32,000 nucleotides of DNA from Methylorubrum extorquens (GTDB taxonomy: Bacteria; Pseudomonadota; Alphaproteobacteria; Rhizobiales; Beijerinckiaceae), in contig LT962688.1 of assembly GCA_900234795.1 (NCBI GenBank), positions 2,040,001 through 2,072,000 on the forward strand. The letters run 5' to 3'. Shown in pieces: positions 273 to 24,361 of this stretch (the first letter of the stretch is position 1; the number at the start of each line of letters is the position of its first letter). The position numbers were made by a program, and so were the translations under genes. A model generated the notes under the pieces. The model was not told the DNA's origin, did not search any database, and worked only from the letters and a program-made list of their open reading frames with translations.

Positions 273-1019
273 GACGCGGCTCCTTGGATGCGCGGGTTCC
301 GGACTTAGCCGGGCTGCTTAGCGTGAGAAGGACAGAAGTTCCAGCGCATTAGGCTGGAACTGTTCCGAGAGGGCGCGCTTTGAGCGCGATTTCGAGAAAG
401 TGTGTCGTGCCGGTCTCGCGGCCGAACTGCGGCTTCGGAGATGAAGCCGGTGGTCGCGCGATCCGAACCGGGAATGATCGTCTGATTTCCGCATTCTGCG
501 GCAGATTTTTGACCGTTCCTCTGCACGGACAGGCCGCAAGGGGCGAAACGGGGCGAAACACGTTCACGATTTCTCGCACGATGTCCCGTGCGGCGTCCGC
601 TACCCCGTCATGAAGCCGACATCGTTCGGAATGCTTGTGCGAAGCGATATCGTCGCGCAATCCGGTTGCAGTGCGCAATCGCACCGCCGCCGCCGGATCG
701 GACCGGTTTGCCGGGCCGCGTTGCATTCCCCCGCTGGGACAAGTAGGTAGCGCGCCAACGACACGAATGATCGGCGTGGAGTCTTTATCGAGCTCTTCGC
801 GCGGTCCGTGTTCGACGGGCAGGGTCCGCCGGCCGTCGGCGCCCCTCCCGGTTTCTCGCTCGCGAGGGCCACGTCCCGCGGGCCAAGACGAGGATCGATT
901 CGGCGCGTCGCCGCCTGCTGAGGACGCCGCGTCCTGTGTCGCGGGGAGGACGGGACTTCGGCGTCCCGGCCCGTCGTCACGCGGGGACAGGCCGGATCGT
1001 TAGGCAGACAGGGTTTTAC

Positions 1020-3668
1020 GTGATCGAACGTCTCGTCGCGTTTTCCGTCAGGCGCCGCTGGCTGGTACTGGTGGCTGCGGCGCTCCTTACGGTCGCGGGC
1101 GTGGGCGCGGCCGCGCACCTGTTCCGCATCAACACCGATGTCGAGCGGCTGATCGAGCCGAGCGTCTCCTGGCGCAAGGACGAGATCGCCTTCGAGAAGG
1201 CGTTCCCGCAACGCACGAATCTCGTGGCCGCGGTGATCGACGGCGAGACGCCGGAGATCGCCGAGGAGGCCGCCGCACGTTTCGCCGAGGCGCTCAAGGC
1301 GCACCGCTCCGAGATCGAGACGGTGTACCGGCCCGATGGCGGCCCGTTCTTCGACCGCAACGGCCTCCTGCTGATGTCGCAGGAGGAGTTGGAGCAGACC
1401 ACCCAGCGCCTGATCGAGCAGCAGGGCCTTCTCGGGCCGCTGGCGGCCGACCCGTCGCTGCGCGGCGTGATGCGGGTGCTCTCCCTCGGCGTGAAGGGCG
1501 TGAAGAGCGGCGACGCCAAGCTCGAAGACCTCGCCCAGCCGATGGAGCAGATCGACGGGACCCTGCGCAAGGTGCTCGACGGGCAGCGCGCCCGCATGTC
1601 GTGGCAGACCCTGCTCGCGGGCGGGCGCAGCGAGACCACGGACACCCGCAAGTTCGTGATGATCCAGCCGGTGCTCGACTACAACGCCCTGGAGCCGGGC
1701 CGCGAGGCGACCAAGCTGATCCGGCGCCTAGCCGCCGAGCAGAACATCGACGCGGCGCACGGCCTGCGCATCCGCCTGACCGGGCCGGTGGCGGTGGCCG
1801 ACGACGAGTTCGCCACGCTCGCCGACGACGCCTTCCTCAACTACTCGCTGACGACCGCCGCCATCGTCCTGTTCCTGTGGCTGGCTTTGCGCTCCGGACC
1901 CCTCGTGATCTCGGTTCTGATCACGACCTTCGCGGGTCTCGTCGTGACGGCCGCCCTCGGGCTCATCATGGTGGGCGAGCTGAACCCGATCTCGGTGGCC
2001 TTCGCCGCCCTGTTCGTGGGGCTCGGCATTGATTTCGGCATCCAGTTCGCCGTCCGCTACCGGGCCGACCGCTACGAACTCGGCAGCGTCGATGCGGCGT
2101 TGCGCGGTGCGGCGCGCGGCGTCGGCTGGTCGCTGACGCTCGCGGCGGTCTCGCTGCTCGCCGGCTTCTTCGCCTTCCTGCCCACGCAGTTCCGCGGCGT
2201 GTCCGAACTCGGCCTCATCGCCGGCGTCGGCATGATCGTGGCCTACCTGTTCTCGCTCACCCTGCTTCCGGCCCTGATCGCGGTGTTCAACCCGCGCGGC
2301 GAGAAGCGGGCGGTCGAGACGACGTGGATGGCGGGCGTCGACCACTGGATCATCGAGCACCGCAAGTGGGTGCTGATCTTTGTGGGCGTTATCACGGTCG
2401 CCGGCATCCCGCTGCTCTTGAAGCTGCCCTTCGATTCCAACCCGATGCATCTTCGCAGCCCGAAGGTGGAATCGATCGCGACCTATCTCGACCTGATCAA
2501 GGACCCGGCCACCAGCCCGAACTCGATCGATGTGCTGGCCCCGAACGTCGATGCGGTCCCTGCCCTCTCCAAGCGCTTGGAGGGGCTCGACGCGGTCGCC
2601 AAGGTGATCTCGATCGACACTTTCGTGCCGCGCGATCAGGATCAGAAGCTCGCCACGATCCAGGAGACGGCGCAGCTCCTTGCCCCGGCCCTCAACCCGG
2701 CGCGCAAGCCGCCGCCGCCGACGGATGCGGAGAACGTCAAGGCGCTCAAGGAAACGGCCGCGGCGCTGAAGACCATCGCCAACGGCGATTCGGCCGGCGC
2801 CAAGGCCGCGGACCGCCTGTCGGGCACCCTCGACACCCTCGCCGCTGCCCCGGCGGAGAAGCGCGAGGCCGCCAGCGTCGCGCTGACCACCGATCTGAAG
2901 ACCCTGATGAGCCGCCTGTCCGGGCTGCTCGATCCGAAGAAGATCACCCTCGACAACCTGCCCAAGCCGCTGAAGGCCGAGTGGGTGACGAGCGACGGCC
3001 GCGCCCGCATCGAGGTCCACCCGAAGGGCGACTCGAACGACGACGAGGTGCTGCGCCGCTTCGCCAAGGAGGTGCAGACGGTCGATCCCCACGCCACGGG
3101 CGCGCCGATCGCCACGACCGAGTCGAGCTACACCATCCTCGGCGCCTTCGTGCAGGCGGGTCTGACAGCGCTCGCGCTGATCTTCATCCTGCTCTCGGTC
3201 GCGCTGCGCAAACCCTGGGACGTGGCGATGACGCTCGGCCCGCTGGTGCTGGCGACTCTGTGGACGCTGATGGCGCTCAAGGTCATCGGCATGCCGCTGA
3301 ACTTCGCCAACATCATCGCCCTGCCGCTGATGCTGGCGGTGGGTGTGGCCTTCCACATCTACTACGTGATCGCGTGGCGCGCCGGCGTCGTCGACATGCT
3401 GGCCTCCAGCCTGACGCGGGCGATCTTCTTCTCCGCGCTGACCACGGGCACCGCCTTCGGTTCGCTGATGCTGTCGAGCCATCCCGGCACCGCCAGCATG
3501 GGCGAGCTGCTCGCGCTGTCGCTGTTCTTCACGCTGATCGCGGCCTTCTTCGTGGTCCCGGCCTTCCTCGGGCCGCCGCCGAAGCAGCCGGATGCCGAGC
3601 GCCCCGAGGGCAAGGAAGCCGGCCGCCCGCCGGGCACGGTCGCTCGCGAGCACGCGACGGTGAAGTAG
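1020..3668 (+). CDS. hpnN: Hopanoid transporter HpnN (RND/MMPL superfamily, sterol-sensing-domain type)
   Basis: Track ORF 936..3668. It has two blocks of about six hydrophobic helices separated by large soluble domains, which is RND topology, and it sits in an hpn cluster. I moved the start to in-frame GTG 1020 (VIERLVAFSVRRRWLVLVAAALL, basic stretch then first TM). The 28 codons upstream are Arg/Gly-rich and look non-coding. Exact start is uncertain. Confidence 0.88.
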   Translation: MIERLVAFSVRRRWLVLVAAALLTVAGVGAAAHLFRINTDVERLIEPSVSWRKDEIAFEKAFPQRTNLVAAVIDGETPEIAEEAAARFAEALKAHRSEIETVYRPDGGPFFDRNGLLLMSQEELEQTTQRLIEQQGLLGPLAADPSLRGVMRVLSLGVKGVKSGDAKLEDLAQPMEQIDGTLRKVLDGQRARMSWQTLLAGGRSETTDTRKFVMIQPVLDYNALEPGREATKLIRRLAAEQNIDAAHGLRIRLTGPVAVADDEFATLADDAFLNYSLTTAAIVLFLWLALRSGPLVISVLITTFAGLVVTAALGLIMVGELNPISVAFAALFVGLGIDFGIQFAVRYRADRYELGSVDAALRGAARGVGWSLTLAAVSLLAGFFAFLPTQFRGVSELGLIAGVGMIVAYLFSLTLLPALIAVFNPRGEKRAVETTWMAGVDHWIIEHRKWVLIFVGVITVAGIPLLLKLPFDSNPMHLRSPKVESIATYLDLIKDPATSPNSIDVLAPNVDAVPALSKRLEGLDAVAKVISIDTFVPRDQDQKLATIQETAQLLAPALNPARKPPPPTDAENVKALKETAAALKTIANGDSAGAKAADRLSGTLDTLAAAPAEKREAASVALTTDLKTLMSRLSGLLDPKKITLDNLPKPLKAEWVTSDGRARIEVHPKGDSNDDEVLRRFAKEVQTVDPHATGAPIATTESSYTILGAFVQAGLTALALIFILLSVALRKPWDVAMTLGPLVLATLWTLMALKVIGMPLNFANIIALPLMLAVGVAFHIYYVIAWRAGVVDMLASSLTRAIFFSALTTGTAFGSLMLSSHPGTASMGELLALSLFFTLIAAFFVVPAFLGPPPKQPDAERPEGKEAGRPPGTVAREHATVK

Positions 3669-3697
3669 CCGGACCCGTCTGGTTGGCGGTTCGGCGT

Positions 3698-3805
3698 CAT
3701 ACCAAATCCGTTTGACCCCTTCGGGATGGCGGATTTGGGCTTCGCTCAAGCGCCGCGCGGGCTGACCGATACGGTTCCCGCTTTGATCAAGCGGAAACCG
3801 TATCA
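3698..3805 (-). repeat. Structured intergenic repeat, copy A (two stem-loops; second copy at 30012-30119)
   Basis: Hand alignment to the reverse complement of 30012-30119 gives about 91/108 identical positions. Stem 1 is CCAAATCCG (3702-3710) with CGGATTTGG (3730-3738). Stem 2 is 3768-3782 with 3790-3804 (15 bp). The strand call is the strand on which stem 2 pairs fully once G-U is allowed. The element overlaps the TGA stop (3805-3803) of the minus-strand gene 3803..4306. Confidence 0.8.
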
Positions 3806-4306
3806 GTCGCCCGCCAACCGGGCCTGGATCGCCTCCAGGATCCAGGCCTCGCGGGTCTTGCCCGCCTTGGCGGCGGCGGCATCGATCTGCAGCGACAAAG
3901 CCGGCTTGACCGGCAGGCTCAGGATGAATGCGGTCTCGCCCTCGTTCGGGCCGGGGGGATCGTAAACGAGGCTCGTCAGCGCCGAGGCGAAGCGCCGGAC
4001 CGCCTCGCGCTGGCGGTTGAGCGTCAGGCTCTCGTCCCGGGCGACGAGCGGGCAGTACGCGGCGACCGCGCGATCGACGATGACCGTCCGCGGCACGCCC
4101 TGGGCCCTGAGACGCTGTATGGCGGATGCCAGCGCCGTGCCCGCCTTCGTCTCGGGTTGCGGCGAGACGATCGCTTGGGTGAGGACGGCGTCGGCCTCCG
4201 GGTGCGGCGCTGACGGTGGGCCGCAATCCAGCCCGGCGGCCGAGGCGGCTGTGCCCGCCAAGCCCGCTGCGACGGCAAGGGAAACGAGGGCGGCGCGTCG
4301 TCTCAT
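3803..4306 (-). CDS. Hypothetical exported protein (signal peptide, no recognised family)
   Basis: Track ORF 3803..4408. I moved the start to ATG 4306 (MRRRAALVSLAVAAGLAGTAASAAG, a typical Sec signal), with GAGGAA 9 nt upstream. High GC3 coding pattern. No domain recognised. Confidence 0.6.
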   Translation of the reverse strand: MRRRAALVSLAVAAGLAGTAASAAGLDCGPPSAPHPEADAVLTQAIVSPQPETKAGTALASAIQRLRAQGVPRTVIVDRAVAAYCPLVARDESLTLNRQREAVRRFASALTSLVYDPPGPNEGETAFILSLPVKPALSLQIDAAAAKAGKTREAWILEAIQARLAGD

Positions 4307-4500
4307 GGATCGGCGTTCCTCACGGCTTCGAAGCGGTTTTCGCGGGGCCCTTCCTCGCGGTTCCGGGCCGTCCGCGGGCTTCAGCTCTATTCGGAGGATG
4401 CTCTCCAACCCATCGACCGGCGTTGATTTCGATCAGCGCTGAAGCACCGTCGCGCTTGAACCGGCCCCCGTGAGCCGGGGCGGCTGCGCGCAGCGGATGC

Positions 4501-5343
4501 CTAAGGCAGGAAATCCGAGAAGCCGCCCAGGATTGCTCCACCCCCCACGACAGCCTCCCGCGCCTGCGGCGCGATCAGCGCATCCCGCTCGGCGGCATAT
4601 TGGTACCCAGGGGCCTCGCCGGGGAAGCCACCTGTGGTCGCCGGGTGGGTGTAGAGTTCGGTGAGCCCGTCCGGCAAGTGGCGCAGCAGGGCGGTGACGC
4701 GCTCCGGGGTCATCGCGCCGGACCACGCAAGGCCGAGGGTCCGGGTCGGGATCAGCAGGCCGGCCTGCCGGGCGCGCACGGCGAGGAGGGCCGCCCACGG
4801 TGCCGTGTCGAGAGCGGGCTTGGCCTGGAAGCCGGGCTCCGCGCGCCGCAGCAGATCGCGCGGCTCGCGCGGCACCCGCAGTGCCCGCATCCCGTAATCG
4901 CGGCCGATCCGCAGCACCATTCCGGCGATGAGCGGGTGGATGTGGAAATGCTTGTGCGCGTTGACGTGATCGAGCGGCAGGCCGGTTGCACGAAACGCCT
5001 CGAATTGCGCCCGGATTTCGGCGGCGAGTTGCCGCCGGGCGCTCGCCTTGAGGGCAAGGTCGAGGCCGAGCCGCTCCATGTCGCGCCGCATCAGCCCTTG
5101 CGCGTCCGTCAGGTCAGGAAGCTCGGCGGGCGGCAGGGTCGGCCAGGCCTCGACCAGCACGAGGTGCAGCCCGACCCGCAGGGACGGCGTGCGCCGCGCG
5201 CGGGCGACGGCGTCGGCGGCGCCGGGCGCGGAGACCATCAGGCTCGCGGCGGTGAGGATGCCGTCGCGATGGGCCTGCTCGACGGCCTCGTTGACCTCGC
5301 GGCTCAGGCCGAAATCGTCGGCGGTGACGACCAGTCGCTTCAA
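4501..5343 (-). CDS. hpnK: HpnK, YdjC-like deacetylase of the hopanoid cyclitol-ether pathway
   Basis: Track ORF 4501..5451. The conserved YdjC/HpnK N-terminus KRLVVTADDFGLSREVNEAV begins directly at TTG 5343. The 36 codons upstream (GTG 5451) are occupied by a perfect 14-bp hairpin, so they are more likely intercistronic. The alternative start 5451 is not excluded. Confidence 0.82.
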   Translation of the reverse strand: MKRLVVTADDFGLSREVNEAVEQAHRDGILTAASLMVSAPGAADAVARARRTPSLRVGLHLVLVEAWPTLPPAELPDLTDAQGLMRRDMERLGLDLALKASARRQLAAEIRAQFEAFRATGLPLDHVNAHKHFHIHPLIAGMVLRIGRDYGMRALRVPREPRDLLRRAEPGFQAKPALDTAPWAALLAVRARQAGLLIPTRTLGLAWSGAMTPERVTALLRHLPDGLTELYTHPATTGGFPGEAPGYQYAAERDALIAPQAREAVVGGGAILGGFSDFLP

Positions 5344-5410
5344 GCTCTGCCCCTGTCTCGGGTGTCGAGAGGGCAAGCCCCCTCGCGGATCCAGGGCCGA
5401 GCCCTGGAAG

Positions 5411-5444
5411 CAGGAAAGGCCGGGCGGGTGCCCGGCCTTTCCTG
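5411..5444 (-). promoter_or_regulatory. Perfect 14-bp GC-rich stem-loop between hpnJ and hpnK
   Basis: CAGGAAAGGCCGGG (5411-5424), loop CGGGTG, CCCGGCCTTTCCTG (5431-5444). It begins 29 nt after the hpnJ stop. There is no U-tract on the transcribed (minus) strand, so I do not call it a canonical intrinsic terminator. Confidence 0.6.
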
Positions 5445-5472
5445 TTTGCACGATGGAGCCGGCGGCTCAGCG

Positions 5473-6897
5473 TTACGCGGCGGCCTTGCGGTCCCGGAGG
5501 AAGTGCCAGAACTCGACGCCCTCGCGCAGGCGGCGCTTCATCATCTCGGGCGAGCGGACCATCTCGTTGACGATCGAGGCGATCTTCGGGGCGCGGAAGT
5601 AGAACTTCCGGTAGAACTCCTCAACCGCGGAGAAGATCTCCGAGTGCGACAGGTGCGGGTAGTGCAGCGGCGCGATCTGCACGCCGTTCTCGTCCACGAG
5701 CTCGGCGTTCTCGACGTCGAGCCAGCCGTTCTCCACCGCCTGCTTGTAGAGGAAGGTGCCCGGGTAGGGCGCCGCCAGCGAGACCTGGATCGTGTGCGGG
5801 TTGATGCGCTTGGCGAAGGCGATCGTCTCCTGGATCGTCTCCTTCGTCTCGCCCGGCAGGCCGACGATGAAGGTGCCGTGGATGGCGATGCCGAGTTCGT
5901 GGCAGTTCTTGGTGAACTTCTCCGCGACTTCGACGCGCATGCCCTTCTTGATGTTGTTCAGGATCTGCTGGTTGCCGGACTCGTAGCCGACGAGCAGCAG
6001 GCGCAGGCCGTTGTCCTTGAGAACCTTCAGGGTCTCGTAGGGCACGTTGGCCTTGGCGTTGCAGGACCACGTCACGCCGAGCTTGCCCAGCTCGCGGGCG
6101 ATCTCTTCCGCGCGCGGCAGGTTATCGGTGAAGGTGTCGTCGTCGAAGAAGAACTCCTTCGTCTGAGGGAACTCCTTCAGGCAATACTTGATCTCTTCGA
6201 TGACGTGCGCGACCGAGCGGGTGCGGTAGGTGTGCCCGCCGACGGTCTGCGGCCAGAGGCAGAAGGTGCAACGGCTCTTGCAGCCACGGCCCGAGTAGAA
6301 CGAGATGTAGGGGTGCTTGAGGTACCCGATGAAGTACTTTTCCATCTCGAGGTCGCGCTTGTACACGCTCGTGACGAAGGGAAGCTGGTCCATGTCCGTC
6401 ATGATCTCGCGGTCCTCGTTATGGACCACGACGCCGTTGGCATCACGATAGGACAGACCCTTGATCTCCGACATCGGCACGCCGTCGGCGACTTCCTTGA
6501 CGGTGAAGTCGAACTCGTTGCGGGCGCAGAAATCGATGCACGGGGCCTGGGCCATGGAGCCGGCGGCATCCACCGCGACCTTGGCGCCGATCAGGCCGGC
6601 GATCAGCCGCGGGTTGGCCGCCTTGAGCGCCTCGACGGTCTTCACGTCGGACTTGAAGGACGGGACCGAGGTGTGGAGCACCACGAGGTCGAAGTCGTTG
6701 GCCTGGGCCACGATCTCTTCGAGCTTGATGTTGTGCGGCGGTGCGTCGATCAGCTTCGAGTTCGGCACCAGAGCCGCCGGCTGGGCCAGCCAGGTCGGGT
6801 ACCAGAACGACTTGATCTCGCGCTTGGCCTGGTAGCGCGAGCCGGCGCCGCCATCGAAGCCGTCGAAGGTGGGGGCCTGCAGGAAGAGCGTGCGCAT
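5473..6897 (-). CDS. hpnJ: HpnJ, B12-binding-domain radical SAM enzyme (BHT-glucosamine to BHT cyclitol ether)
   Basis: Track ORF 5473..6906 (TTG). ATG at 6897 gives MRTLFLQAPTFDGFDGGAGSRYQAKREIKSFWYPTWLAQPAAL, the conserved HpnJ N-terminus. The radical-SAM cysteine motif is GCKSRCTFC. Flanked by hpnI and hpnK. Confidence 0.92.
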   Translation of the reverse strand: MRTLFLQAPTFDGFDGGAGSRYQAKREIKSFWYPTWLAQPAALVPNSKLIDAPPHNIKLEEIVAQANDFDLVVLHTSVPSFKSDVKTVEALKAANPRLIAGLIGAKVAVDAAGSMAQAPCIDFCARNEFDFTVKEVADGVPMSEIKGLSYRDANGVVVHNEDREIMTDMDQLPFVTSVYKRDLEMEKYFIGYLKHPYISFYSGRGCKSRCTFCLWPQTVGGHTYRTRSVAHVIEEIKYCLKEFPQTKEFFFDDDTFTDNLPRAEEIARELGKLGVTWSCNAKANVPYETLKVLKDNGLRLLLVGYESGNQQILNNIKKGMRVEVAEKFTKNCHELGIAIHGTFIVGLPGETKETIQETIAFAKRINPHTIQVSLAAPYPGTFLYKQAVENGWLDVENAELVDENGVQIAPLHYPHLSHSEIFSAVEEFYRKFYFRAPKIASIVNEMVRSPEMMKRRLREGVEFWHFLRDRKAAA

Positions 6898-6954
6898 GGG
6901 GTTCAAGGCCTCAAGGCTCGAGCGTTGATCTGTAAAGGGCGAATGGTTTGAAGC

Positions 6955-8151
6955 TTAGACCGAAGTCGCGCGTGACTCGCGACCGAGGCCGTGCTCCGGA
7001 ATCAGCGTACCGTCCGCAACCACACGGTAATCGTGACCTTTCCATGTCACCGCACCCGAGACGAAGCTCCAAGTGAAGTTGATGAAGGACAGCATGTCAC
7101 GTATCGGCAACAGCCAGTAGGCGTGGGGGGAGAGCCCGAAGGCCCGCTCGATGCGCAGGCACAGCAGGATGCGGCAGGTAAGGGCCAGGGCGGCGACCGC
7201 GAGTGCGCCGGAGCCGGCGCCGGGCATCAGCGCGGCGAGCAGCGCCAGCGGGAAGGCGTGGGTCACGACCGATCCGGCATAGCCCTTCGGATCGACGTTG
7301 CGGATGGTGCGGTTCCAGCGCAGCTCGTGCCGCCACAGTCCGGACAGCTCGGTATCGACGCAGGCATGCCCGATGGTGAGGGCGGGAATCGCCACCGTGC
7401 CGCCCTCGGCGCGCAGGGCTTCGCCGATCGCGTAATCGTCGGCCAGATCATCCTTGAACGCGCGGAAGCCGCCGATGCGGGCCAGCGATTCGGCCGTCAT
7501 CGCGATGGTCGAGCCGAAGCAGGGCCGGGCGAGATCGAAGGTGGTGCCGAGGATGACGTTGGGCACGAACTGCACGTCGATGGCGAGCGCCGCGAGTTGA
7601 GCGCACAGGCCCCGGTCGCCCGGCACGCCGTGATAGAGGCAGGTCACGCCGGAAATGCCGGGCTGCGACAGGGCGGCGGCGACGCGCTCGAGATAATCGG
7701 GCTTCACCGACATGTCGCTGTCGGCCAGCACCACGACGGCGTGGGCGATCCGCTCCGACATGTTGATGAGGTTGGAGACCTTGCGGTTCGAGCCGTGCTG
7801 GCTCGGATCCACCACGAGGTCGAGGCGCAGGGCGGGATGGGCTTCACGCAGGCGCTGCACCACGGCAATCGCCGGGTCGGCCGCGTTCTGGACGCCGAAC
7901 ACGATCTGCACCGGGCCGGCATAGTCCTGACGGCAGAAGCTTTCGAGGTTCTCGAAGAGGTCCGGCTCCAGGCCGCAGAGGGGCTTGAGAATCGTCACGC
8001 CGGGGCGCGGCGCATCGGCCGCGAGCGCGGGCGACGGCCGCGCGGCGAAACGGTCGACGAGCCAGGCCGCGAGCAGGGCATAGACGCAACCGGCGAGCGC
8101 CATCAGCAATAGCACAGATGCGATCCAGGCCGGCAGCTCGTTCAGATCCAT
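6955..8151 (-). CDS. hpnI: HpnI, family-2 glycosyltransferase (BHT N-acetylglucosaminyl transferase)
   Basis: Track ORF 6955..8232. I moved the start to ATG 8151 (MDLNELPAWIASVLLLMALAGCVYALLAAWL, an N-terminal TM). GT2 features include GVTILKPLCG and LADSDM (a DxD-like motif). Synteny with hpnJ and hpnK supports the call. Confidence 0.85.
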   Translation of the reverse strand: MDLNELPAWIASVLLLMALAGCVYALLAAWLVDRFAARPSPALAADAPRPGVTILKPLCGLEPDLFENLESFCRQDYAGPVQIVFGVQNAADPAIAVVQRLREAHPALRLDLVVDPSQHGSNRKVSNLINMSERIAHAVVVLADSDMSVKPDYLERVAAALSQPGISGVTCLYHGVPGDRGLCAQLAALAIDVQFVPNVILGTTFDLARPCFGSTIAMTAESLARIGGFRAFKDDLADDYAIGEALRAEGGTVAIPALTIGHACVDTELSGLWRHELRWNRTIRNVDPKGYAGSVVTHAFPLALLAALMPGAGSGALAVAALALTCRILLCLRIERAFGLSPHAYWLLPIRDMLSFINFTWSFVSGAVTWKGHDYRVVADGTLIPEHGLGRESRATSV

Positions 8152-8334
8152 GGCGCGGCGTTGCTCGCTGCTGTCTTGGGGCGGGGCCGCGGGCGGCGGT
8201 CTGAAGACGGTGAAGCCTGGACGCCGCCCCAAACGGGTCGCGGTCGGCTCCAGGCCTTGTCGGTGGTCTCGTTCCTGCCGAATCGATGGTTGGTTCGGCC
8301 CGGCGGAGCGCTTCTCAATCCCTGGTCTCTGGCC

Positions 8335-17471: not shown

Positions 17472-18971
17472 ATGGGCTACGAGATCGATCTGGGTCGGGC
17501 CGGCGACAAGCCCGGGATGATGGACCTCACGGAGCTGCTGGCGACGCGCCTCCTCGTCCAGGGCAATTCCGGTTCGGGCAAATCGCACCTGCTCCGGCGC
17601 CTGCTCGAACAGAGCGCGGGCCTCGTGCAGCAGGCGATCATCGATCCCGAGGGCGATTTCGTCACGCTGGCCGAGCGCTACGGCCACGTCGTGATCGAGG
17701 CGGACGGCAACGAGGCCGAACTCCTGCGCATCGCTGCCCGCGTGCGCGAGCATCGGGTCTCCGTCGTGCTCTCGCTGGAGGGGCTCGACGCCGAGGACCA
17801 GATGCGCGCCGCCGCCGCCTTCCTCGGTGGGCTGTTCGATGCCGACCGCTCGCTCTGGTACCCGATGCTGGTGGTGGTGGACGAGGTGCAGCTCTTCGCC
17901 CCGGCCGCCGCGGGCGAGGTCTCCGACGAGGCCCGCCGCCTCTCGCTCGGCGCCATGACCAACCTGATGTGCCGCGGGCGAAAGCGCGGGCTGGCGGGCA
18001 TCATCGCCACGCAGCGTCTGGCCAAGCTCGCCAAGAACGTCGCAGCGGAAGCCTCGAACTTCCTGATGGGCCGCACCTTCCTCGACATCGACATGGCGCG
18101 CGCTGCCGACCTGCTCGGCCTCGACCGCCGCGGGGCCGAGATGTTCCGCGACCTCGCCCGCGGCCATTTCGTCGGCCTCGGCCCGGCGCTCTCGAAGCGC
18201 CCGCTGCCGATCGCCATCGGTCCGACGGTGACCGAGAGCCGCAACGCCGCCCCCGACCTGCTCCCCCTGCCTACCATGGGCGAGGAGGCGCGCGCCCTGA
18301 TCATGACGGCGTCGGCCGAGGAGGAGGCCCGGCCCCTGCCTGCCCCCCGGCCCAAGCCAGTGCGCGCGCCGGGCCCCGACGTGCTGGTCCAGCTCGCCAA
18401 TTACCGCCCGCCGGTGCGCGACGATCTGCCGGAGGAGGAGCCGATGGACCCGGCCGAGCGCGAGGCGGCGATGGCCGAGATCCTCGCCTCGGTGCTCGCG
18501 GATTCGGACGCCGCTGCCTGCACGCCCGCCACCCTCTACCAGGATTTCACCGTCCGCTGCCGTATCCGCCGGATCGGCGGCGAGGCGATGGGCCTGCCCG
18601 AGTTCAAGCGGCGGCTCGCCGTGGCGCGGGCCGGCGTCCAGGGCGCCACCGCCGAGGGACCCGGTTGGGAGCGGGCGCAGGAGATTGCCGCCGGTCTGCC
18701 CGAGGATCTGGCCGGGCTGTTCCTGCTCATCGCCCGCACGGCGCTCGAAGGTTCGCCCTGCCCCTCCGACGCGGCGCTCGCGGAGGCCTACGGCACCTCC
18801 TCGGCGGGGCGTGCCCGGCGCATGCTGGGCTATCTGGAGGAGCGTGGCGCCATCGTCATGCGCCGGGACCTGCGCGGCGCGCCGATCATCGCCGTGCCCG
18901 ATCTCGATGCCGAGACCGGCCCACAGATCGGCGCGGCTGCCGTGCTCCCGCTGCGTCGGCGGCGGCCCTGA
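17472..18971 (+). CDS. HerA/DUF87-type P-loop ATPase with Pro/Glu-rich linker and unknown C-terminal (wHTH-like) domain
   Basis: Walker A is GNSGSGKSH. Other blocks are IIDPEGDF, Walker B LVVVDEVQLF and GRKRGLAGIIATQRLAKL. The C-terminal ~180 aa has no match I recognise, except a wHTH-like stretch (RARRMLGYLEERGAIVMRRD). Confidence 0.75.
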   Translation: MGYEIDLGRAGDKPGMMDLTELLATRLLVQGNSGSGKSHLLRRLLEQSAGLVQQAIIDPEGDFVTLAERYGHVVIEADGNEAELLRIAARVREHRVSVVLSLEGLDAEDQMRAAAAFLGGLFDADRSLWYPMLVVVDEVQLFAPAAAGEVSDEARRLSLGAMTNLMCRGRKRGLAGIIATQRLAKLAKNVAAEASNFLMGRTFLDIDMARAADLLGLDRRGAEMFRDLARGHFVGLGPALSKRPLPIAIGPTVTESRNAAPDLLPLPTMGEEARALIMTASAEEEARPLPAPRPKPVRAPGPDVLVQLANYRPPVRDDLPEEEPMDPAEREAAMAEILASVLADSDAAACTPATLYQDFTVRCRIRRIGGEAMGLPEFKRRLAVARAGVQGATAEGPGWERAQEIAAGLPEDLAGLFLLIARTALEGSPCPSDAALAEAYGTSSAGRARRMLGYLEERGAIVMRRDLRGAPIIAVPDLDAETGPQIGAAAVLPLRRRRP

Positions 18972-19083: not shown

Positions 19084-20676
19084 TTGCTGCAGTCGCGGGA
19101 AGGTTTGCGTACCCTGTCGGGCCGCCGCACGATCGTCGTCGGGGCCGGCCCCGGCGGGCTTGCCACGGCGCTGCTCCTGGCCAAGGCCGGACTGCACGTC
19201 ACGCTGATCGAGAAGGACGCCCAAGTCGGCGGGCGCACCAAGACCGTGGAGGCGCCGGGCGGCTACCGCTTCGATATCGGCCCGACCTTCTTCCTCTATC
19301 CGCAGATCCTCGCCGACATCTTCGAATCCTGCGGCGAGCGCCTGGAGGACCATGTCCGGCTGGAGCGGCTCGACCCGCAATACAACCTCGTCTTCGAGGG
19401 TGAGGGCGGCATTTCGGGGCAGATCCGCGCCACCGGCGACGTGCCGCGGCTGAAGGCCGAGATCGCCCGCCTCGCCCCCGCCGACGCCGAGAACGTCGAA
19501 AAGTTCTTCGAAGAGAACCGGACCAAGCTGAACTACTTCAAGCCGGTGCTGGAGCAGCCCTTCGACAACATCCTGTCGATGGCGAGCCCGGCGATGCTGG
19601 CTGCCCTGCCCCATCTCCATCCCGGCCGCAGCGTGGACCGGGATCTCAAGCGCTACTTCGCCGACCCGCGGGTGCGCCTCGCCTTCTCATTCCAGACCAA
19701 ATATCTCGGGATGAGTCCCTTCCGCTGCCCGAGCCTGTTCACGATCCTCTCGTTCCTCGAATACGAGCACGGGGTCTATCACCCGGTCGGCGGCTGCGGC
19801 GCGGTCTCGGAGGCGATGGCGGGGCTGGCCCGCCGCATGGGCGTCGACATCCGCCTCGGGCAATCGGTCGAGCGGATCCTGTTCGAGGGCAAGCGCGCCA
19901 CCGGCGTGGTCGTCGACGGCGAGACGCTGAAGGCCGATGCGGTGGTCGTGAACGGCGACTTCGCCAAGGTGATTCGCGATCTGGTGCCGGAGGAGCGGCG
20001 CCCGCGCTGGCGCGACGCAAAGATCGGCAAGGCGCGGCTCTCCTGCTCGACCTACATGCTCTACCTCGGCATCGAGGGCAAAATGCCCGAGAGCCTGGGC
20101 CACCACACCATCCTGCTGGCCAAGGAATACGAGCGCAACATCAAGGAGATCACCGGCGGCACGCTGCCGATGGAGCCTTCGATCTACGTGCAGCATGCCG
20201 GCTTCACCGATGGCGGCATGGCGCCGCCCGGCCATACCGCCCTCTACGTGCTGGTGCCGGTGCCGAACCTGAAGGCGGGCATCGATTGGGAGACGGTCGG
20301 CCCGACCTACCGCAAGCTGATTCTGGAGCGCTTGAAGCTCCTCGGCCTTCCCGACATCGAGAGCCGCATCCGCTACGAGCGCGTGGTCGATCCCCGCGAC
20401 TGGCGCGACGAGTTCGCGGTGCACGAGGGCGCGACCTTCAACCTCGCCCACGATCTCATGCAGATGCTGTGGTTCCGGCCGCATAACCGCTTTGGACCGG
20501 GGCTCTACCTCGTCGGCGGCGGCACCCATCCGGGCTCCGGTCTTCCGGTGATCTACGAGGGCGCGCGCATCTCGGCCCGGCTCCTGATCGAGGATCTCGC
20601 CAAGGAGAAGGCGCCCGCGATCCTGGCGGACCTGCCGACGACCTCGCCGCTCGCCACGCAGGGCGATCCGAGTTGA
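19084..20676 (+). CDS. CrtI/CrtN-family FAD-dependent carotenoid desaturase or oxidase (possibly CrtP/CrtNb-like)
   Basis: Track ORF 18685..20676. The Rossmann motif IVVGAGPGGLATALLLAKAGLHVTLIEKDAQVGGR is followed by FDIGPTFF, FSFQTKYLGMSPFRCPSLFTILSFLEYEHGVYHPVGG and the C-terminal LYLVGGGTHPGSGLPV. Start set at TTG 19084, with GGGAG upstream; TTG 19105 is also possible. Which paralog is the desaturase and which the oxidase cannot be decided by eye. Confidence 0.88.
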   Translation: MLQSREGLRTLSGRRTIVVGAGPGGLATALLLAKAGLHVTLIEKDAQVGGRTKTVEAPGGYRFDIGPTFFLYPQILADIFESCGERLEDHVRLERLDPQYNLVFEGEGGISGQIRATGDVPRLKAEIARLAPADAENVEKFFEENRTKLNYFKPVLEQPFDNILSMASPAMLAALPHLHPGRSVDRDLKRYFADPRVRLAFSFQTKYLGMSPFRCPSLFTILSFLEYEHGVYHPVGGCGAVSEAMAGLARRMGVDIRLGQSVERILFEGKRATGVVVDGETLKADAVVVNGDFAKVIRDLVPEERRPRWRDAKIGKARLSCSTYMLYLGIEGKMPESLGHHTILLAKEYERNIKEITGGTLPMEPSIYVQHAGFTDGGMAPPGHTALYVLVPVPNLKAGIDWETVGPTYRKLILERLKLLGLPDIESRIRYERVVDPRDWRDEFAVHEGATFNLAHDLMQMLWFRPHNRFGPGLYLVGGGTHPGSGLPVIYEGARISARLLIEDLAKEKAPAILADLPTTSPLATQGDPS

Positions 20677-21104
20677 TGCGGGCCGCGTTTCTCGCGGGCC
20701 TTGCCGTGCTGGCGGCGCTGACGGGCCCGGCGCGGGCGGCAGGCCTGGAGGTGATCGTCGAGGGGGCCGAGCCGGGGCCGGGCGAAGTCTACGTCACCCT
20801 GTGTCAGGGCGGGCTGAGCGAGGCCGCCTGTCCGATCGGCCGGAGCGCACCGGTCCGCGGCGGCGCCGAGCGCTTCGTCTTCACCGACGTGCCCGCGGGC
20901 GTCTGGGCGGTCGCCGCCTTCCAGGACGAGAACGGCAACGGCCGGCTCGACCGGACCGGGCTCGGCCTGCCGCTGGAGCCCTACGGTTTCTCCGGCGCGG
21001 TCGCGCGTCGGGGCCGGCCGGACTTTGCCAGCGCGAGCTTCGCCCTGCGCGAACCCGGCGCCGCCGTGCGGATCCGCATCGCCCGTCCCCTGCCGCGGCG
21101 CTGA
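20676..21104 (+). CDS. DUF2141-family periplasmic protein
   Basis: Signal peptide MRAAFLAGLAVLAALTGPARA/AG. DUF2141 signature FQDENGNGRLDRTGLGLPLEPYGFSG. The ATG overlaps the upstream TGA (TGATG). Confidence 0.75.
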   Translation: MRAAFLAGLAVLAALTGPARAAGLEVIVEGAEPGPGEVYVTLCQGGLSEAACPIGRSAPVRGGAERFVFTDVPAGVWAVAAFQDENGNGRLDRTGLGLPLEPYGFSGAVARRGRPDFASASFALREPGAAVRIRIARPLPRR

Positions 21105-21111
21105 CGGGCGG

Positions 21112-22080
21112 ATGATGCGCAGCGATGCCCCGCCCCTCGTCTCCGTCGAGGGCGCTGCCCTCGCCTATCGCGGCCGTCCGGCCCTGCGCGGACTCGACCT
21201 CACCCTCGTTCGCGGCACGACGCTGGCCCTGCTCGGACCGAACGGGGCCGGCAAGACCAGCCTGATCCGCCTGCTGGCCGGGCGGCTCGCGCCCGATGCC
21301 GGAAGCGTCCGCATCCTCGGCGGCGATCCCCATGCCGACCGCGCGACCCGTAAGCGGATCGGCTTCGTGCCGCAGGAGATCGCGCTCTATCCCCGCCTCA
21401 CCGTCGCGGAGAATCTCGACGTGTTCGCCCGGCTTGCCGGCCTGAAGCGCGGGGAACGCCGCGGGGCGGTCGCGGCGGCGATCGGGCGCTGTGCGCTGGC
21501 CGAGGTGGCCGGGCGGCTCGTCGCCACGCTCTCGGGCGGCTACCAGCGCCGGGTCAACATCGCCGTGAGCCTGCTCAGCGAGCCCGACCTGATCTTGCTC
21601 GACGAGCCGACGCAGGGGGTCGATCTCGACGCGCGGGCGTCGATCCACACGGTGCTGGCGGGTCTGCGCGCGGGGGGCGCCGGGCTCGTCATCAGCACCC
21701 ACGATTTCTCCGAGGCCGAGCGCCTTGCCGACCGCGTCGCCATCCTCGCCGACGGACAGATCCGGCTCGAAGGCGCCCTGGCCGCGCTGATGCGCCCGCT
21801 CGAGGCCGCCCCGCCCGAGCACGAGGCGGTGCTGGAGAGCCCCCCGGACGCCGCCGCCGAGGCGGCCCTGCGGCGCTCCGGCTTCTCGCCGCTCGCGGGT
21901 GACGCACGGTTCTGGCGCGCCGACCATGGTGCGGCCGGCGGGCTCGACGGCGCGGCTCTGCTGGCCGCCCTGCGCACCTCGGGCGTGCCGGTGGCCGAGA
22001 TCCGCGTGCGCCGCCCCGGCCTGGAAACCCTCTATCGGGACAGCCTCGCCGACCGTCCGGGCCTGGAGAGCGCGGCGTGA
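21112..22080 (+). CDS. ABC transporter ATP-binding protein (ABC-2/DrrA type)
   Basis: Track ORF 21025..22080. ATG 21112 lies 7 nt after the DUF2141 stop. Walker A is GPNGAGKTS, the signature motif is LSGGYQRR and Walker B is LILLDEPT. Confidence 0.9.
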   Translation: MMRSDAPPLVSVEGAALAYRGRPALRGLDLTLVRGTTLALLGPNGAGKTSLIRLLAGRLAPDAGSVRILGGDPHADRATRKRIGFVPQEIALYPRLTVAENLDVFARLAGLKRGERRGAVAAAIGRCALAEVAGRLVATLSGGYQRRVNIAVSLLSEPDLILLDEPTQGVDLDARASIHTVLAGLRAGGAGLVISTHDFSEAERLADRVAILADGQIRLEGALAALMRPLEAAPPEHEAVLESPPDAAAEAALRRSGFSPLAGDARFWRADHGAAGGLDGAALLAALRTSGVPVAEIRVRRPGLETLYRDSLADRPGLESAA

Positions 22081-23303
22081 TCGCGGCGGCATTCCGGGTG
22101 ATGTGGCTCTCGCTCGTGCGCGACCGCGCGGCGCTGACCATGGCCTTCGTGCTGCCCACCGTCATCTTCGCGATTTTCGCGGCGATCTTTTCGGGCGCGA
22201 TCGGCGACCGCATCCGCATCCATCTCGGGCTCGCCGACCTCGCGGGCACCGCCACCACGCAGCGCCTTGTCACGGCGCTGGAGGCCGAGCCGTCCTTGCG
22301 CATCGCGCGCCTGGACGTGGCGGACGAGGCGGCGGCCGTCCGCGCCGTGCGCCGGGGCGAGGTCGATGTGGCCCTGGTGCTGCGCAGCGACCTCGCGGCA
22401 CCCGCTGGCCCCGACAAGGCAGGCACGGACAAGGGGAGCGCGGCGGCGAGCCAGCCGGTGCTGCTGATCGAGAGTCCGTCGCGGGCGCTCGCCACACCGA
22501 TCGCGCTGGGCCAGCTCCAGCGTGCCCTCAACGACGCGCTGCCCGACGTGGTGCTCTCGCGCATCGTCGCGGATGTGGAGCGCTCCGGCAAGATCGGGCC
22601 GGACGAGCGCGCCTTCCTCGACGAGGCCTTCGCCGAGCAGCGGGCGAAGAAGGAGCCGTTCTCCTTCACCCGTCTCGTCGAGACCCGCACCACCGCGAGC
22701 GGGCGCGGCAACGAGCGGGTGAGCTACTACGCGGGCGCCATCGCCGCCGTGTTCCTGCTGTTCGCGGCGATGCAGGGGGCGCTCTCCCTGGTGGACGAGC
22801 GCGAGGGCGGGCTGGCCGATCGCCTCGCCGCCGGCCCCGGCGGGCTACCGGTGATCGTGCTGGGCAAATTCCTGTTCCTGCTCGGCCAGGGCGTGGTCCA
22901 GGCCGGGCTGATCTTTTCCGCCGCCGCGCTTCTGCACGGCGTCGATGTGTCCGGCCACTGGATCGGCTGGCTCGTCACCTCGATCCTCGTCTCGGCCATG
23001 GCGGCCGGCCTCGCGCTCGCCGCCTGCTCGCTCTCGGCCACACGTCAGCAGGCGCATCTGGCCGCGACCTTCGGCGTGCTGCTGCTCTCGGCGGTGGGCG
23101 GCAGCATGGTGCCCCGCTTCCTCATGCCCCCCTGGTTGCAGCAGGCCGGCTGGCTCACGCCCAACGCCTGGGCGATCGAGGCCTATCAGGCGGCCCTCGG
23201 CGAGGGCGCGGCGGCGGCGCTACCGGCCTGGGGCGTGCTGGCGGCCCTGGCGGCCGTGGGTCTGGGGGTCGCGGTCGGGGTGGTGGGCCGGAGAACGGTC
23301 TGA
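22077..23303 (+). CDS. ABC-2 type permease with large N-terminal periplasmic loop
   Basis: The GTG overlaps the ATPase stop (GTGA). One N-terminal TM, a ~180-aa loop, then 5-6 C-terminal TM helices, which is typical ABC-2/YhhJ-like architecture. Confidence 0.85.
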
Positions 23304-23402
23304 GGCGGATCGCCCTGCGGCGACCTGCGCCCGCGACCCGGGCGCGCGGATCGGGCAGAGGCAACGCCCCCGACCTGTCTCTCTCCGAGCCGCCCCACCC
23401 CC

Positions 23403-24263
23403 ATGACGAACGCGATGCTGCGCCTGCTGATCGCCGACGGCAACGACCGCGACGGCCGTGCGAAGCGCGAGGCCGCCGTCGGCCAAACCACCTCGCAGGC
23501 CTTCGCCAGCGTCGTGGCCGATCTCGCGCCCGAGGCGGCCTGCACGCTGGTGAACCCGGCCGATGCCGAGGCCGCGATCGGGGCCGATCTCGCCGGGTTC
23601 GACGGGATGGTGCTCACCGGCTCCACCCTGCGGCTCGCCGATGACGGTCCGGCGGTGCGGCGCCAGCTCGACCTGATGCGCGCGGCGCTGGAGGCCGGGC
23701 TGCCGGTCTTCGGCTCGTGCTGGGGCATGCAGGTCGCCGCGGCGATCGCGGGCGGGGATGTCGGCGAGAACCCGCGCGGGCCGGAATACGGTTTCGCCCG
23801 GCGCCTCACGGCCACGGGTGACGGGGCCGTTCACCCGCTCTTGGCCGGTCGCGCCCCCGCCTGGGACGCACCCGCGATCCATCTCGATGCCGTCGTCGGC
23901 GCCCCGTCCGGCGCTCGGGTGCTCGCGGCGAACGCCATGCTCGACGTGCAGGCGATCGAGATCCGCTACGGGCGCGGGCTGTTCTGGGGCACGCAGTACC
24001 ACCCGGAAACCGACCTCGACGAACTGGCCGCGATGCTGCGGCTGAGCGCCGACGCGGTCGTCTCCGCTGGCCTGGCCGCCGATTACGCCGCGGTCGAGGC
24101 CTATGCCGGCGAGATTTCGGATCTCGACGGGAGCGAGGGTGCCTCCCGCCGCCATCGCGCGTGGCGTCTCGGGATCGGCGCCGACGTGCTCGAATCTACG
24201 CAGCGGCGCCGGGAAATCGGCAATTTTCTCGCGTCTCTGTCCACAGCCCGCGGCGTGGAATGA
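23403..24263 (+). CDS. Class-I glutamine amidotransferase-like protein (COG0518/GuaA-N type)
   Basis: Nucleophile elbow GSCWGMQ and catalytic His-Glu context WGTQYHPE. About 90 aa of C-terminal extension of unknown function. Confidence 0.8.
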   Translation: MTNAMLRLLIADGNDRDGRAKREAAVGQTTSQAFASVVADLAPEAACTLVNPADAEAAIGADLAGFDGMVLTGSTLRLADDGPAVRRQLDLMRAALEAGLPVFGSCWGMQVAAAIAGGDVGENPRGPEYGFARRLTATGDGAVHPLLAGRAPAWDAPAIHLDAVVGAPSGARVLAANAMLDVQAIEIRYGRGLFWGTQYHPETDLDELAAMLRLSADAVVSAGLAADYAAVEAYAGEISDLDGSEGASRRHRAWRLGIGADVLESTQRRREIGNFLASLSTARGVE

Positions 24264-24361
24264 ACCGAGCGCGACCGGGTGGCACGTTGACCCGCCCGGT
24301 CCCGCATCTAGCTTCGCTTTGACGGCCTTCTTTTTCAGGCCGCGCGGGAGACGCGTTTCCA

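Follow-up and report, generated by a model that had tools for sequence, protein, structure and literature searches.

How does a Gram-negative bacterium move a carotenoid from the site of its synthesis to the outer membrane? The carotenoids of Methylorubrum extorquens PA1 are reported to be located in the outer membrane, and carotenoids influence lipid packing in this species (bioRxiv 2020.12.21.423902); the literature that we searched gave no account of how Gram-negative bacteria accomplish the transfer. The question is posed in concrete form by a 32,000-nucleotide stretch of M. extorquens DNA (assembly GCA_900234795.1, contig LT962688.1, positions 2,040,001 to 2,072,000; this whole stretch, of 70% G+C, is referred to below as the window), in which a carotenoid desaturase gene is followed directly by genes for a DUF2141 protein, an ATP-binding cassette (ABC) ATPase, and an ABC-2 permease. 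A first-pass annotation, made from the sequence alone, had taken these genes for a dedicated export or envelope-insertion module for a carotenoid and had stated that no carotenoid outer-membrane trafficking system is established in Gram-negative bacteria. The latter statement agreed with the literature searched, in which we found nothing relevant on carotenoid export or on a periplasmic carotenoid-binding system. Here we argue, with about as much confidence as doubt, that the type V ABC-2 exporter and the DUF2141 protein may act as a post-synthetic carotenoid-handling module; judged by their context, the module genes are at present the strongest candidates for a role in carrying carotenoids across the envelope.

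Gene order and junctions of the carotenoid cluster

Eight consecutive genes, lying in a single unbroken run on the plus strand of the window as judged by G+C at codon positions (19084-27878), map one to one onto META1p3670 through META1p3663 of M. extorquens AM1 by gene order (PMC10448405). They include two CrtI-family oxidases, a GT2 glycosyltransferase, and an acyltransferase in the AM1 order, the composition of a squalene-route C30 carotenoid cluster. The squalene synthesis genes hpnCDE were not found in the window; in AM1 they are META1p1815-1817, away from the crt cluster (PMC10448405). The AM1 pigment is 4-[2-O-11Z-octadecenoyl-beta-glucopyranosyl]-4,4'-diapolycopenedioic acid, and its published pathway assigns META1p3663 as glycosyltransferase, META1p3664 as acyltransferase (both functions established via deletion and complementation), META1p3665 as CrtP, and META1p3670 as CrtN (PMC10448405).

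The first gene of the run (19084-20676), the META1p3670 orthologue, encodes CrtN, the C30 (squalene-route) carotenoid desaturase (Pfam Amino_oxidase; NCBIfam crtI_fam, 497 bits; gene order). It is followed by the gene for the DUF2141 protein of 142 amino acids (aa) (20676-21104; META1p3669; PF09912, with a Sec signal), by that for an ABC ATPase of 322 aa with a nucleotide-binding domain (NBD) and a NosF-like C-terminal domain (21112-22080; META1p3668; assigned from ABC_tran, NCBIfam, and PDB matches), and by that for an ABC-2 permease of 408 aa (22077-23303; META1p3667; assigned from PF12698 [ABC2_membrane_3], PF01061 [ABC2_membrane], and hydropathy) that is 99 to 100% identical (rounded) to M. 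extorquens proteins, AM1 included. Read from the sequence and the list of open reading frames, the CrtN stop and DUF2141 start share the pentamer TGATG at 20674-20678 (TGA 20674-20676, ATG 20676-20678), a gap of 7 nt (21105-21111) separates the DUF2141 stop at 21104 from the ATPase ATG at 21112, and the permease GTG (22077-22079) overlaps the ATPase TGA (22078-22080) in the tetramer GTGA at 22077-22080. These junctions are exactly those given by the first-pass annotation. We propose that the four genes form one translationally coupled transcription unit inside the C30 carotenoid cluster; a scan of the locus for promoters and terminators returned no promoter-like sites and only weak terminator-like sites, which lay inside genes.

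The tailoring genes do follow downstream, as had been noted, but a class I glutamine amidotransferase-like gene (23403-24263; META1p3666; Pfam GATase) that had been overlooked stands between them and the permease gene, with gaps of 99 nt on the permease side and 98 nt on the CrtP side. Next come the genes for CrtP, the C30 carotenoid oxidase (24362-25900; META1p3665 orthologue; crtI_fam, 408 bits; gene order), for the carotenoid acyltransferase (25912-26727; META1p3664 orthologue; Pfam Acyltransferase), and for the carotenoid glycosyltransferase (GT2; 26724-27878; META1p3663 orthologue; Pfam Glycos_transf_2). The gene naming therefore had to be revised in part: the upstream CrtI-like gene is that for CrtN, whereas the downstream gene that had been called crtN-like is that for CrtP. 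The four genes META1p3666-3669 go unmentioned in the AM1 pathway study (PMC10448405), in the PA1 study (bioRxiv 2020.12.21.423902), and in the other literature searched, in keeping with the initial view that DUF2141 has no assigned function.

DUF2141 and the ABC pair in other genomes

For comparison, 86 genome loci were collected and the window proteins mapped onto them by tblastn; all comparisons together took in ~165 loci. The survey of neighbourhoods proposed by the first-pass annotation had a double outcome. The CrtN-DUF2141-ABC-permease arrangement was conserved beside crt genes in ~33 Methylobacterium/Methylorubrum loci, but among the loci compared the full four-gene set was found in these two genera only. 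Their shared order was SpoU-CrtN-DUF2141-ABC-permease-(variable)-CrtP-acyltransferase-glycosyltransferase, and the gene upstream of DUF2141 was 76 to 95% identical to the CrtN of the window. A CrtN/DUF2141 overlap of -4 or -1 was available in 32 of 33 of these loci and an ATPase/permease overlap of -4 in 27 of 30, as called by a script that takes the start nearest the upstream stop and is thus biased toward small gaps. The M. aquaticum group (L030, L035, L037, and L038) had the four-gene unit without CrtP nearby. The GATase gene occurred in Methylorubrum and some Methylobacterium and was absent from many (e.g., L001, L016, L020-L021, and L023-L025), and in some species additional DNA lay between the permease and GATase genes. 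An AAA/HerA-like ATPase gene (499 aa; 17472-18971, plus strand), situated between the SpoU methylase and CrtN genes of the window, was found upstream of CrtN only in Methylorubrum-type loci (L008-L013), SpoU standing directly before CrtN in other Methylobacterium. Judged by these distributions, the GATase and AAA ATPase genes are lineage-specific inserts, and the former is probably not part of the proposed module.

Outside these two genera, ABC genes were missing but a DUF2141 gene still separated CrtN from CrtP in Saliniramus (L004), a Salinarimonadaceae metagenome-assembled genome (MAG; L041), Geminicoccus (L072), and a metagenome (L006), these loci continuing with a glycosyltransferase, a fused HpnC/D, HpnE, and, where the flank was long enough, LytB. 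The same ABC-free placement was seen in 11 Microvirga loci, in which a methyltransferase gene occupied the slot after DUF2141. That slot gene encodes a protein of ~360 aa that resembles O-methyltransferases and S-adenosylmethionine methyltransferases (L045:8443-9525; also L043, L049, and others), possibly an enzyme that methyl-esterifies the carotenoid acid. Saliniramus, Microvirga, and Geminicoccus also present the route as one operon, in which CrtN-DUF2141-CrtP-acyltransferase-glycosyltransferase is followed by an SQS_PSY protein of 550-560 aa (apparently a fused HpnC/HpnD), HpnE, and LytB/IspH (L004:14086-17994, L006:13980-17868). Stand-alone DUF2141-ABC-permease trios, tandem or divergent, were encoded by other Microvirga and by Lichenihabitans beside Lon, ClpX, LuxRI, and hydrolase genes. 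In a crude neighbor-joining tree all Methylobacterium DUF2141s grouped with those of the stand-alone trios in one, ABC-linked clade, apart from a second clade associated with CrtN/CrtP only; named matches suggest that the two DUF2141 types occur in different Microvirga species. The neighborhoods and the tree thus identify DUF2141 as a conserved component of carotenoid clusters and DUF2141 plus the ABC pair as a separately conserved module. On this comparative evidence, the partnership of DUF2141 with carotenoid enzymes is ancient and conserved, the ABC pair was added in the ABC-linked clade (Methylobacterium, some Microvirga, and Lichenihabitans), and the carotenoid-cluster DUF2141 and the ABC module are combined only in Methylobacterium and Methylorubrum.

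More distant DUF2141 genes were examined in 28 genome loci and 38 metagenome loci with sufficient downstream flank, the metagenome neighbors being classified by tblastn with chosen queries alone. The commonest neighbor family was RPE65 (carotenoid oxygenase), in 5 of the 28 genome loci. DUF2141 was directly upstream of an RPE65 gene, always on the same strand, in 10 of the 66 loci: five from genomes (L068:7893-9942, L075:1776-3721, L078:7971-9944, L083:7770-9841, and L084:7974-9903) and five from metagenomes (L094, L098, L100, L136, and L162). The intergenic gap, measured in four of the genome loci, was 10-16 nt. A twin-arginine (Tat)-type RRxxL signal is present in nine of the ten oxygenases, and these nine are therefore predicted to be periplasmic; in the tenth (L084) no call could be made at the N-terminus. 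By implication, Gamma- and Betaproteobacteria and Acidobacteriota have enzymes that cleave carotenoids or stilbenoids in the periplasm. In L100 the oxygenase gene is itself followed by another DUF2141 gene.

A second context was a 627-aa fusion of an aldehyde dehydrogenase domain (Aldedh), a hydrophobic transmembrane (TM) segment, and DUF2141 (L167:10001-11884, also L108:4573-6456 and L168:6843-8726), encoded in peat and soil metagenomes in an operon for a CrtN-like protein, the aldehyde dehydrogenase (AldH)::DUF2141 fusion, a CrtP-like protein, GT2, and CrtO (PF18927) in which all junctions overlap. The fusion was present on 22 contigs and the two further members of its cluster have the same length (627 aa in all three), so it is not an assembly artifact; neighboring secretin, MotAB, and OmpA genes suggest a Gram-negative host. 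By this fusion DUF2141 is held at the inner membrane, on its extracytoplasmic side. Its role need not therefore be that of a freely diffusing shuttle and is more safely worded as "receiver or presenter at the membrane surface."

A third context was an aryl-polyene/flexirubin-like cluster in a Bacteroidales MAG (L071:800-16293), where DUF2141 ends a ketosynthase run and the content comprises an ABC ATPase, a PF12698 permease, four ketosynthase-like genes, a polysaccharide deacetylase, DUF2141, a GT2-DUF2062 protein, and a 1289-aa MMPL-acyltransferase-methyltransferase fusion. The polysaccharide deacetylase gene stands directly before DUF2141 in this locus and also in L088 and L093. An ABC ATPase gene adjoins DUF2141 in L099, L129, L132, L152, and L164 as well; these were set aside as not the same module, a PF12698-like permease having been detected only in L071 among the distant loci, and in L129 and L164, which were inspected, no such permease follows the ATPase. 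From the literature comes a DUF2141 gene beside crtG in Sphingomonadales, its role left open by the authors (PMC5989583); this is an independent DUF2141-carotenoid adjacency but belongs to a C40 xanthophyll pathway, for which an ABC pair is not reported. With four independent kinds of context plus this one, gene neighborhood makes the DUF2141-carotenoid link strong. By the same measure the ABC-carotenoid link is weaker, since it is drawn from one genus and one aryl-polyene cluster.

The stand-alone trios raise the alternative that the three genes form an envelope or efflux module complete in itself, with drugs, solvents, or another lipid as its cargo, that landed in a recombination-prone slot in a Methylobacterium ancestor and is co-transcribed with crt genes by accident. 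The company kept by the trio in Microvirga (Lon/ClpX, LuxRI, and hydrolase genes) would fit such an origin, as would the slot between DUF2141 and CrtP, which elsewhere holds a GATase, a methyltransferase, or nothing. The best-scoring subfamily for the ATPase, moreover, is DrrA (daunorubicin resistance), one homologue is automatically named linearmycin resistance permease LnrM, and the published analyses of the M. extorquens carotenoid pathway that we consulted are silent on the module genes. We nevertheless consider an accidental association unlikely: DUF2141 by itself is conserved in C30 clusters, fused to AldH, and paired with periplasmic carotenoid oxygenases; the Methylobacterium module sits exactly where relatives have DUF2141; the overlap of CrtN stop and DUF2141 start is conserved; and the ABC-2 pair recurs with DUF2141 in an unrelated polyene pigment cluster.

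Properties of the DUF2141 protein and the ABC pair

The window DUF2141 protein matches PF09912 over residues 27-126 (73.4 bits against a cutoff of 24.4; E 1.7e-20). Its N-terminus reads MRAAFLAGLAVLAALTGPARA/AG, a Sec-type signal with an AxA site that bears out the signal peptide called in the first pass and leaves a mature part of ~121 aa. Signal-like N-termini run throughout an alignment of 62 DUF2141 sequences, and the window protein, like most members, has the form of a single exported domain of ~110 aa; the family member studied here is thus predicted to be extracytoplasmic. Cys43 and Cys52 form a pair conserved in the alphaproteobacterial clade, and 6857 representative clusters are related to the window protein at E <= 1e-3. 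AlphaFold2 modeled a beta-sandwich (pLDDT 91); by sequence the protein had no meaningful match in the PDB, and a Foldseek search of the model against the PDB returned nothing at E < 1e-3, the weak matches being pilins, the ExsB secretin pilotin, and CBM20. We propose DUF2141 as a candidate periplasmic carotenoid-handling protein. The original suggestion of a periplasmic lipid receiver or chaperone gains from its predicted location and its ties to pigment genes but finds no known lipid-carrier fold behind it. Elsewhere in the family, proteins of ~390-450 aa carry DUF2141 in three tandem copies (P0246, Pfam-confirmed, and P0253, P0254, P0258, and P0271, called from three matched stretches in a representative-library search), and P0312, P0326, P0382, and P0251 have it behind the predicted membrane domains DUF2306 or DUF6622, or with a PRC-barrel domain.

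Fusion to an aldehyde dehydrogenase could also be taken to mean that DUF2141 is itself a biosynthetic accessory or enzyme, acting on polyene aldehydes (e.g., in the aldehyde-to-acid step) or on cis/trans isomers, with the ABC pair merely exporting the product. Its recurrent neighbors CrtP and the RPE65-family oxygenases both form aldehydes, the family has a strongly conserved acidic/Ser loop, and the M. extorquens pathway has an AldH without an assignment, two candidates for the step having been deleted with no effect (PMC10448405). This proposal is difficult to reconcile with location: DUF2141 is put outside the cytoplasm by its signal peptide and, in the fusion, by a TM segment that follows the cytoplasmic AldH, whereas the UDP-sugar-dependent GT2 glycosylation must come after acid formation and inside the cell. 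The intracellular site of that step is a consequence of the established topology of GT2 enzymes. The ~120-aa beta-sandwich, moreover, has no cofactor-binding motif and no enzyme match in the fold search, and in the Sphingomonadales crt clusters DUF2141 is paired with a hydroxylase, not an aldehyde-forming enzyme (PMC5989583). We regard an enzymatic role as quite unlikely.

The model and the alignment bring in another possibility, that DUF2141 is a calcium- or carbohydrate-binding periplasmic domain which recognizes the head group (glucose or carboxylate) or an envelope glycan and organizes or anchors material at the surface of the membrane rather than carrying the polyene. Consistent with this are the weak fold likeness to CBM20 starch-binding domains and secretin pilotins, the resemblance of the D-x-N-G-N-G-x-L-D loop to calcium sites of the DxDxDG type, and the deacetylase genes directly upstream in L071, L088, and L093. 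The fold matches, though, all lie above E 0.007 with TM-scores of at most 0.58, the RPE65- and CrtG-linked contexts have no obvious glycosides, and the linkage to an ABC exporter is explained no better than by carotenoid handling; such a role seems to us very unlikely.

For the ATPase, the identity given by the first-pass annotation held (ABC_tran, 114.8 bits; an NBD), but a C-terminal extension of ~90 residues had been overlooked; NosF, which has an extension of this kind, aligns over the full length. The best NCBIfam family was the drrA subfamily, at 183 bits and under its 312-bit cutoff, and the nearest solved NBDs were those of ABCA7, ABCA3, ABCA4, and ABCA1 (E ~1e-61), 25 orders of magnitude ahead of the next group. 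The permease (PF12698, 97.2 bits; PF01061, 64.8 bits) is a six-TM protein whose hydropathy places TM1 at about residues 20-38, followed by a hydrophilic ~175 residues and five hydrophobic segments, confirming the large periplasmic loop between TM1 and TM2 that had been described. Its AlphaFold2 model was best matched in fold by the ceramide exporter ABCH-9C, followed by ABCA7, ABCG25, and NosY. Sequence and model together support the view that the ABC pair carries the signature of type V lipid exporters with an extracytoplasmic domain.

A candidate route for carotenoids across the envelope

If the carotenoid-handling reading is right, the pigment, the acyl-glucosyl ester of 4,4'-diapolycopenedioic acid, would be assembled on the cytoplasmic side of the inner membrane by CrtN, CrtP, aldehyde oxidation, GT2, and the acyltransferase. 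The ABC-2 type V exporter, of the ABCA/ABCH kind and with an extracytoplasmic domain of ~175 residues, would then use ATP to flop or extract the glycolipid from the inner membrane, and, in the periplasm, the polyene would become bound to the secreted beta-sandwich DUF2141. From there DUF2141 may pass the pigment toward the outer membrane, or hold and present it at the membrane surface. We infer the carotenoid substrate, its binding by DUF2141, the direction of transport, and the hand-over between the parts from what is directly observed: gene content, junctions, signal peptide, topology, families, neighborhood conservation, the fusion, and co-occurrence. As an account of a dedicated carotenoid export module, the first-pass proposal is thus sustained in that DUF2141 is tied to pigment genes and the ABC pair resembles lipid exporters, but it is weakened by the restriction of the four-gene set to Methylobacterium and Methylorubrum.

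Several observations weigh against carotenoid handling. The ABC pair is possibly a passenger, because most C30 clusters with DUF2141 are without it, because L029 (Methylobacterium carpenticola) and L034 (M. oryzisoli) have CrtN-DUF2141 but lack both the ABC pair and CrtP in the 8 kb that follow, and because the slot between DUF2141 and CrtP is variable (GATase, methyltransferase, or nothing). The permease model is only moderate (pLDDT 68.5), as the alignment behind it was shallow. In the Foldseek comparison the DUF2141 model, a generic beta-sandwich, was unlike LolA, LolB, MlaC, LptA, lipocalin, and YceI, and the family-conserved loop (D-x-N-G-N-G-x-L-D ... G-x-P-x-E-P-Y-G-F-S) resembles, in our judgment, a metal or sugar site more than it does a lipid pocket. 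Where DUF2141 is fused to AldH or to polytopic membrane domains it is anchored in the inner membrane, a poor fit with an obligatory free shuttle. Finally, most distant DUF2141 genes are in unrelated contexts, and the function of the family may be broader.

The window also bears on the other squalene-derived lipid for which the first-pass annotation had allowed. It contains a hopanoid locus (936-10142) lying 9-18 kb upstream of the carotenoid genes, so that two squalene-derived lipid systems are chromosomal neighbors: HpnN (936-3668, plus strand; HpnN model, 1097 bits) and, on the minus strand, HpnK (4501-5451), HpnJ (5473-6906), HpnI (6955-8232), and HpnL (8949-10142). Since HpnN is encoded in the same window, the DUF2141/ABC module is a separate system, and hopanoid export was rejected as its role. 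A hopanoid role for the module, or one for another squalene-derived lipid, is unlikely, given HpnN and HpnIJKL nearby and given that the partners of DUF2141 elsewhere are carotenoid, not hopanoid, enzymes. Between the hopanoid and carotenoid regions lies a gene for an alpha/beta hydrolase of 421 aa (12723-13988, minus strand) with a weak chlorophyllase-family match and no NCBIfam assignment.

Known systems resemble parts of the proposed route. HpnN of Rhodopseudomonas palustris, in the account given where bioRxiv 2020.12.21.423902 cites it, is likewise an inner-membrane transporter encoded with biosynthetic genes that takes a squalene-derived lipid to the outer membrane; it differs in being a proton-driven RND/MMPL protein, not an ABC transporter, and in having no DUF2141-like partner. 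Pfam found no MMPL domain in the four module genes. ABCA1, ABCA3, ABCA4, and ABCA7 and the insect ABCH-9C share with the ABC pair the NBD (the E ~1e-61 matches) and the layout of TM1, a large outside domain, and TM2-6, and the permease model matches ceramide-bound ABCH-9C as well as ABCA7. ABCA1 hands lipid to an external acceptor protein. The module, in contrast, is a bacterial half-transporter with NBD and transmembrane domain in separate genes and a far smaller extracytoplasmic domain, and fold likeness does not fix the substrate. With LolCDE-LolA, MlaFEDB-MlaC, and LptB2FGC-LptA it would share the logic of an ATP-driven inner-membrane extractor working with a periplasmic protein that shields hydrophobic cargo, but their ABC parts are of types VII, VIII, and VI, respectively, compared with type V here, and no outer-membrane receptor was identified in our analysis. 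An ABC extractor with an extracytoplasmic binding protein for an envelope lipid is thus a known kind of system; DUF2141 as a binding-protein family is proposed as new.

Pigment clusters offer a further comparison. The Gram-positive staphyloxanthin operon is not known to have DUF2141 or ABC genes; the versions examined here, which have neighboring genes of Gram-negative appearance, differ from it by the addition of a DUF2141 that is secreted or tethered to the membrane, and the fusion operon in L167 even has the staphyloxanthin CrtO family (PF18927). The enzymes CrtN, CrtP, AldH, the GT2 CrtQ, and the acyltransferase CrtO are otherwise shared with that operon (crtOPQMN plus aldH of Staphylococcus aureus) and with squalene-route C30 clusters (PMC9907078, PMC10448405). 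Aryl-polyene/flexirubin clusters have their own export genes (MMPL, LolA-like) for a polyene pigment of the outer membrane, and L071, the single such locus seen here, shares the ABC-2 Pfam family and DUF2141 with the module, although the aryl-polyene backbone is of polyketide type, not isoprenoid.

A broader and more doubtful proposal, which we offer tentatively, is that DUF2141 founds a widespread family of extracytoplasmic proteins (~6,900 clusters at 50% identity) that bind polyene pigments (carotenoids, apocarotenoids, and aryl polyenes), which with the ABC-2 exporter would provide the first dedicated Gram-negative route for carotenoids out of the inner membrane toward the outer membrane and elsewhere would feed periplasmic cleavage oxygenases. 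The proposal gives a large DUF family a concrete and falsifiable function. Three small, deletable genes in a genetically tractable organism offer a way into the question of carotenoid trafficking in Gram-negative bacteria. Carotenoids and terpenes are also products for which M. extorquens is engineered, and titers are often limited by export or sequestration. Together, the AldH fusion, the pairs with Tat-type oxygenases, and the aryl-polyene cluster suggest that the biology of bacterial pigments has, in general, a periplasmic side, possibly including carotenoid cleavage.

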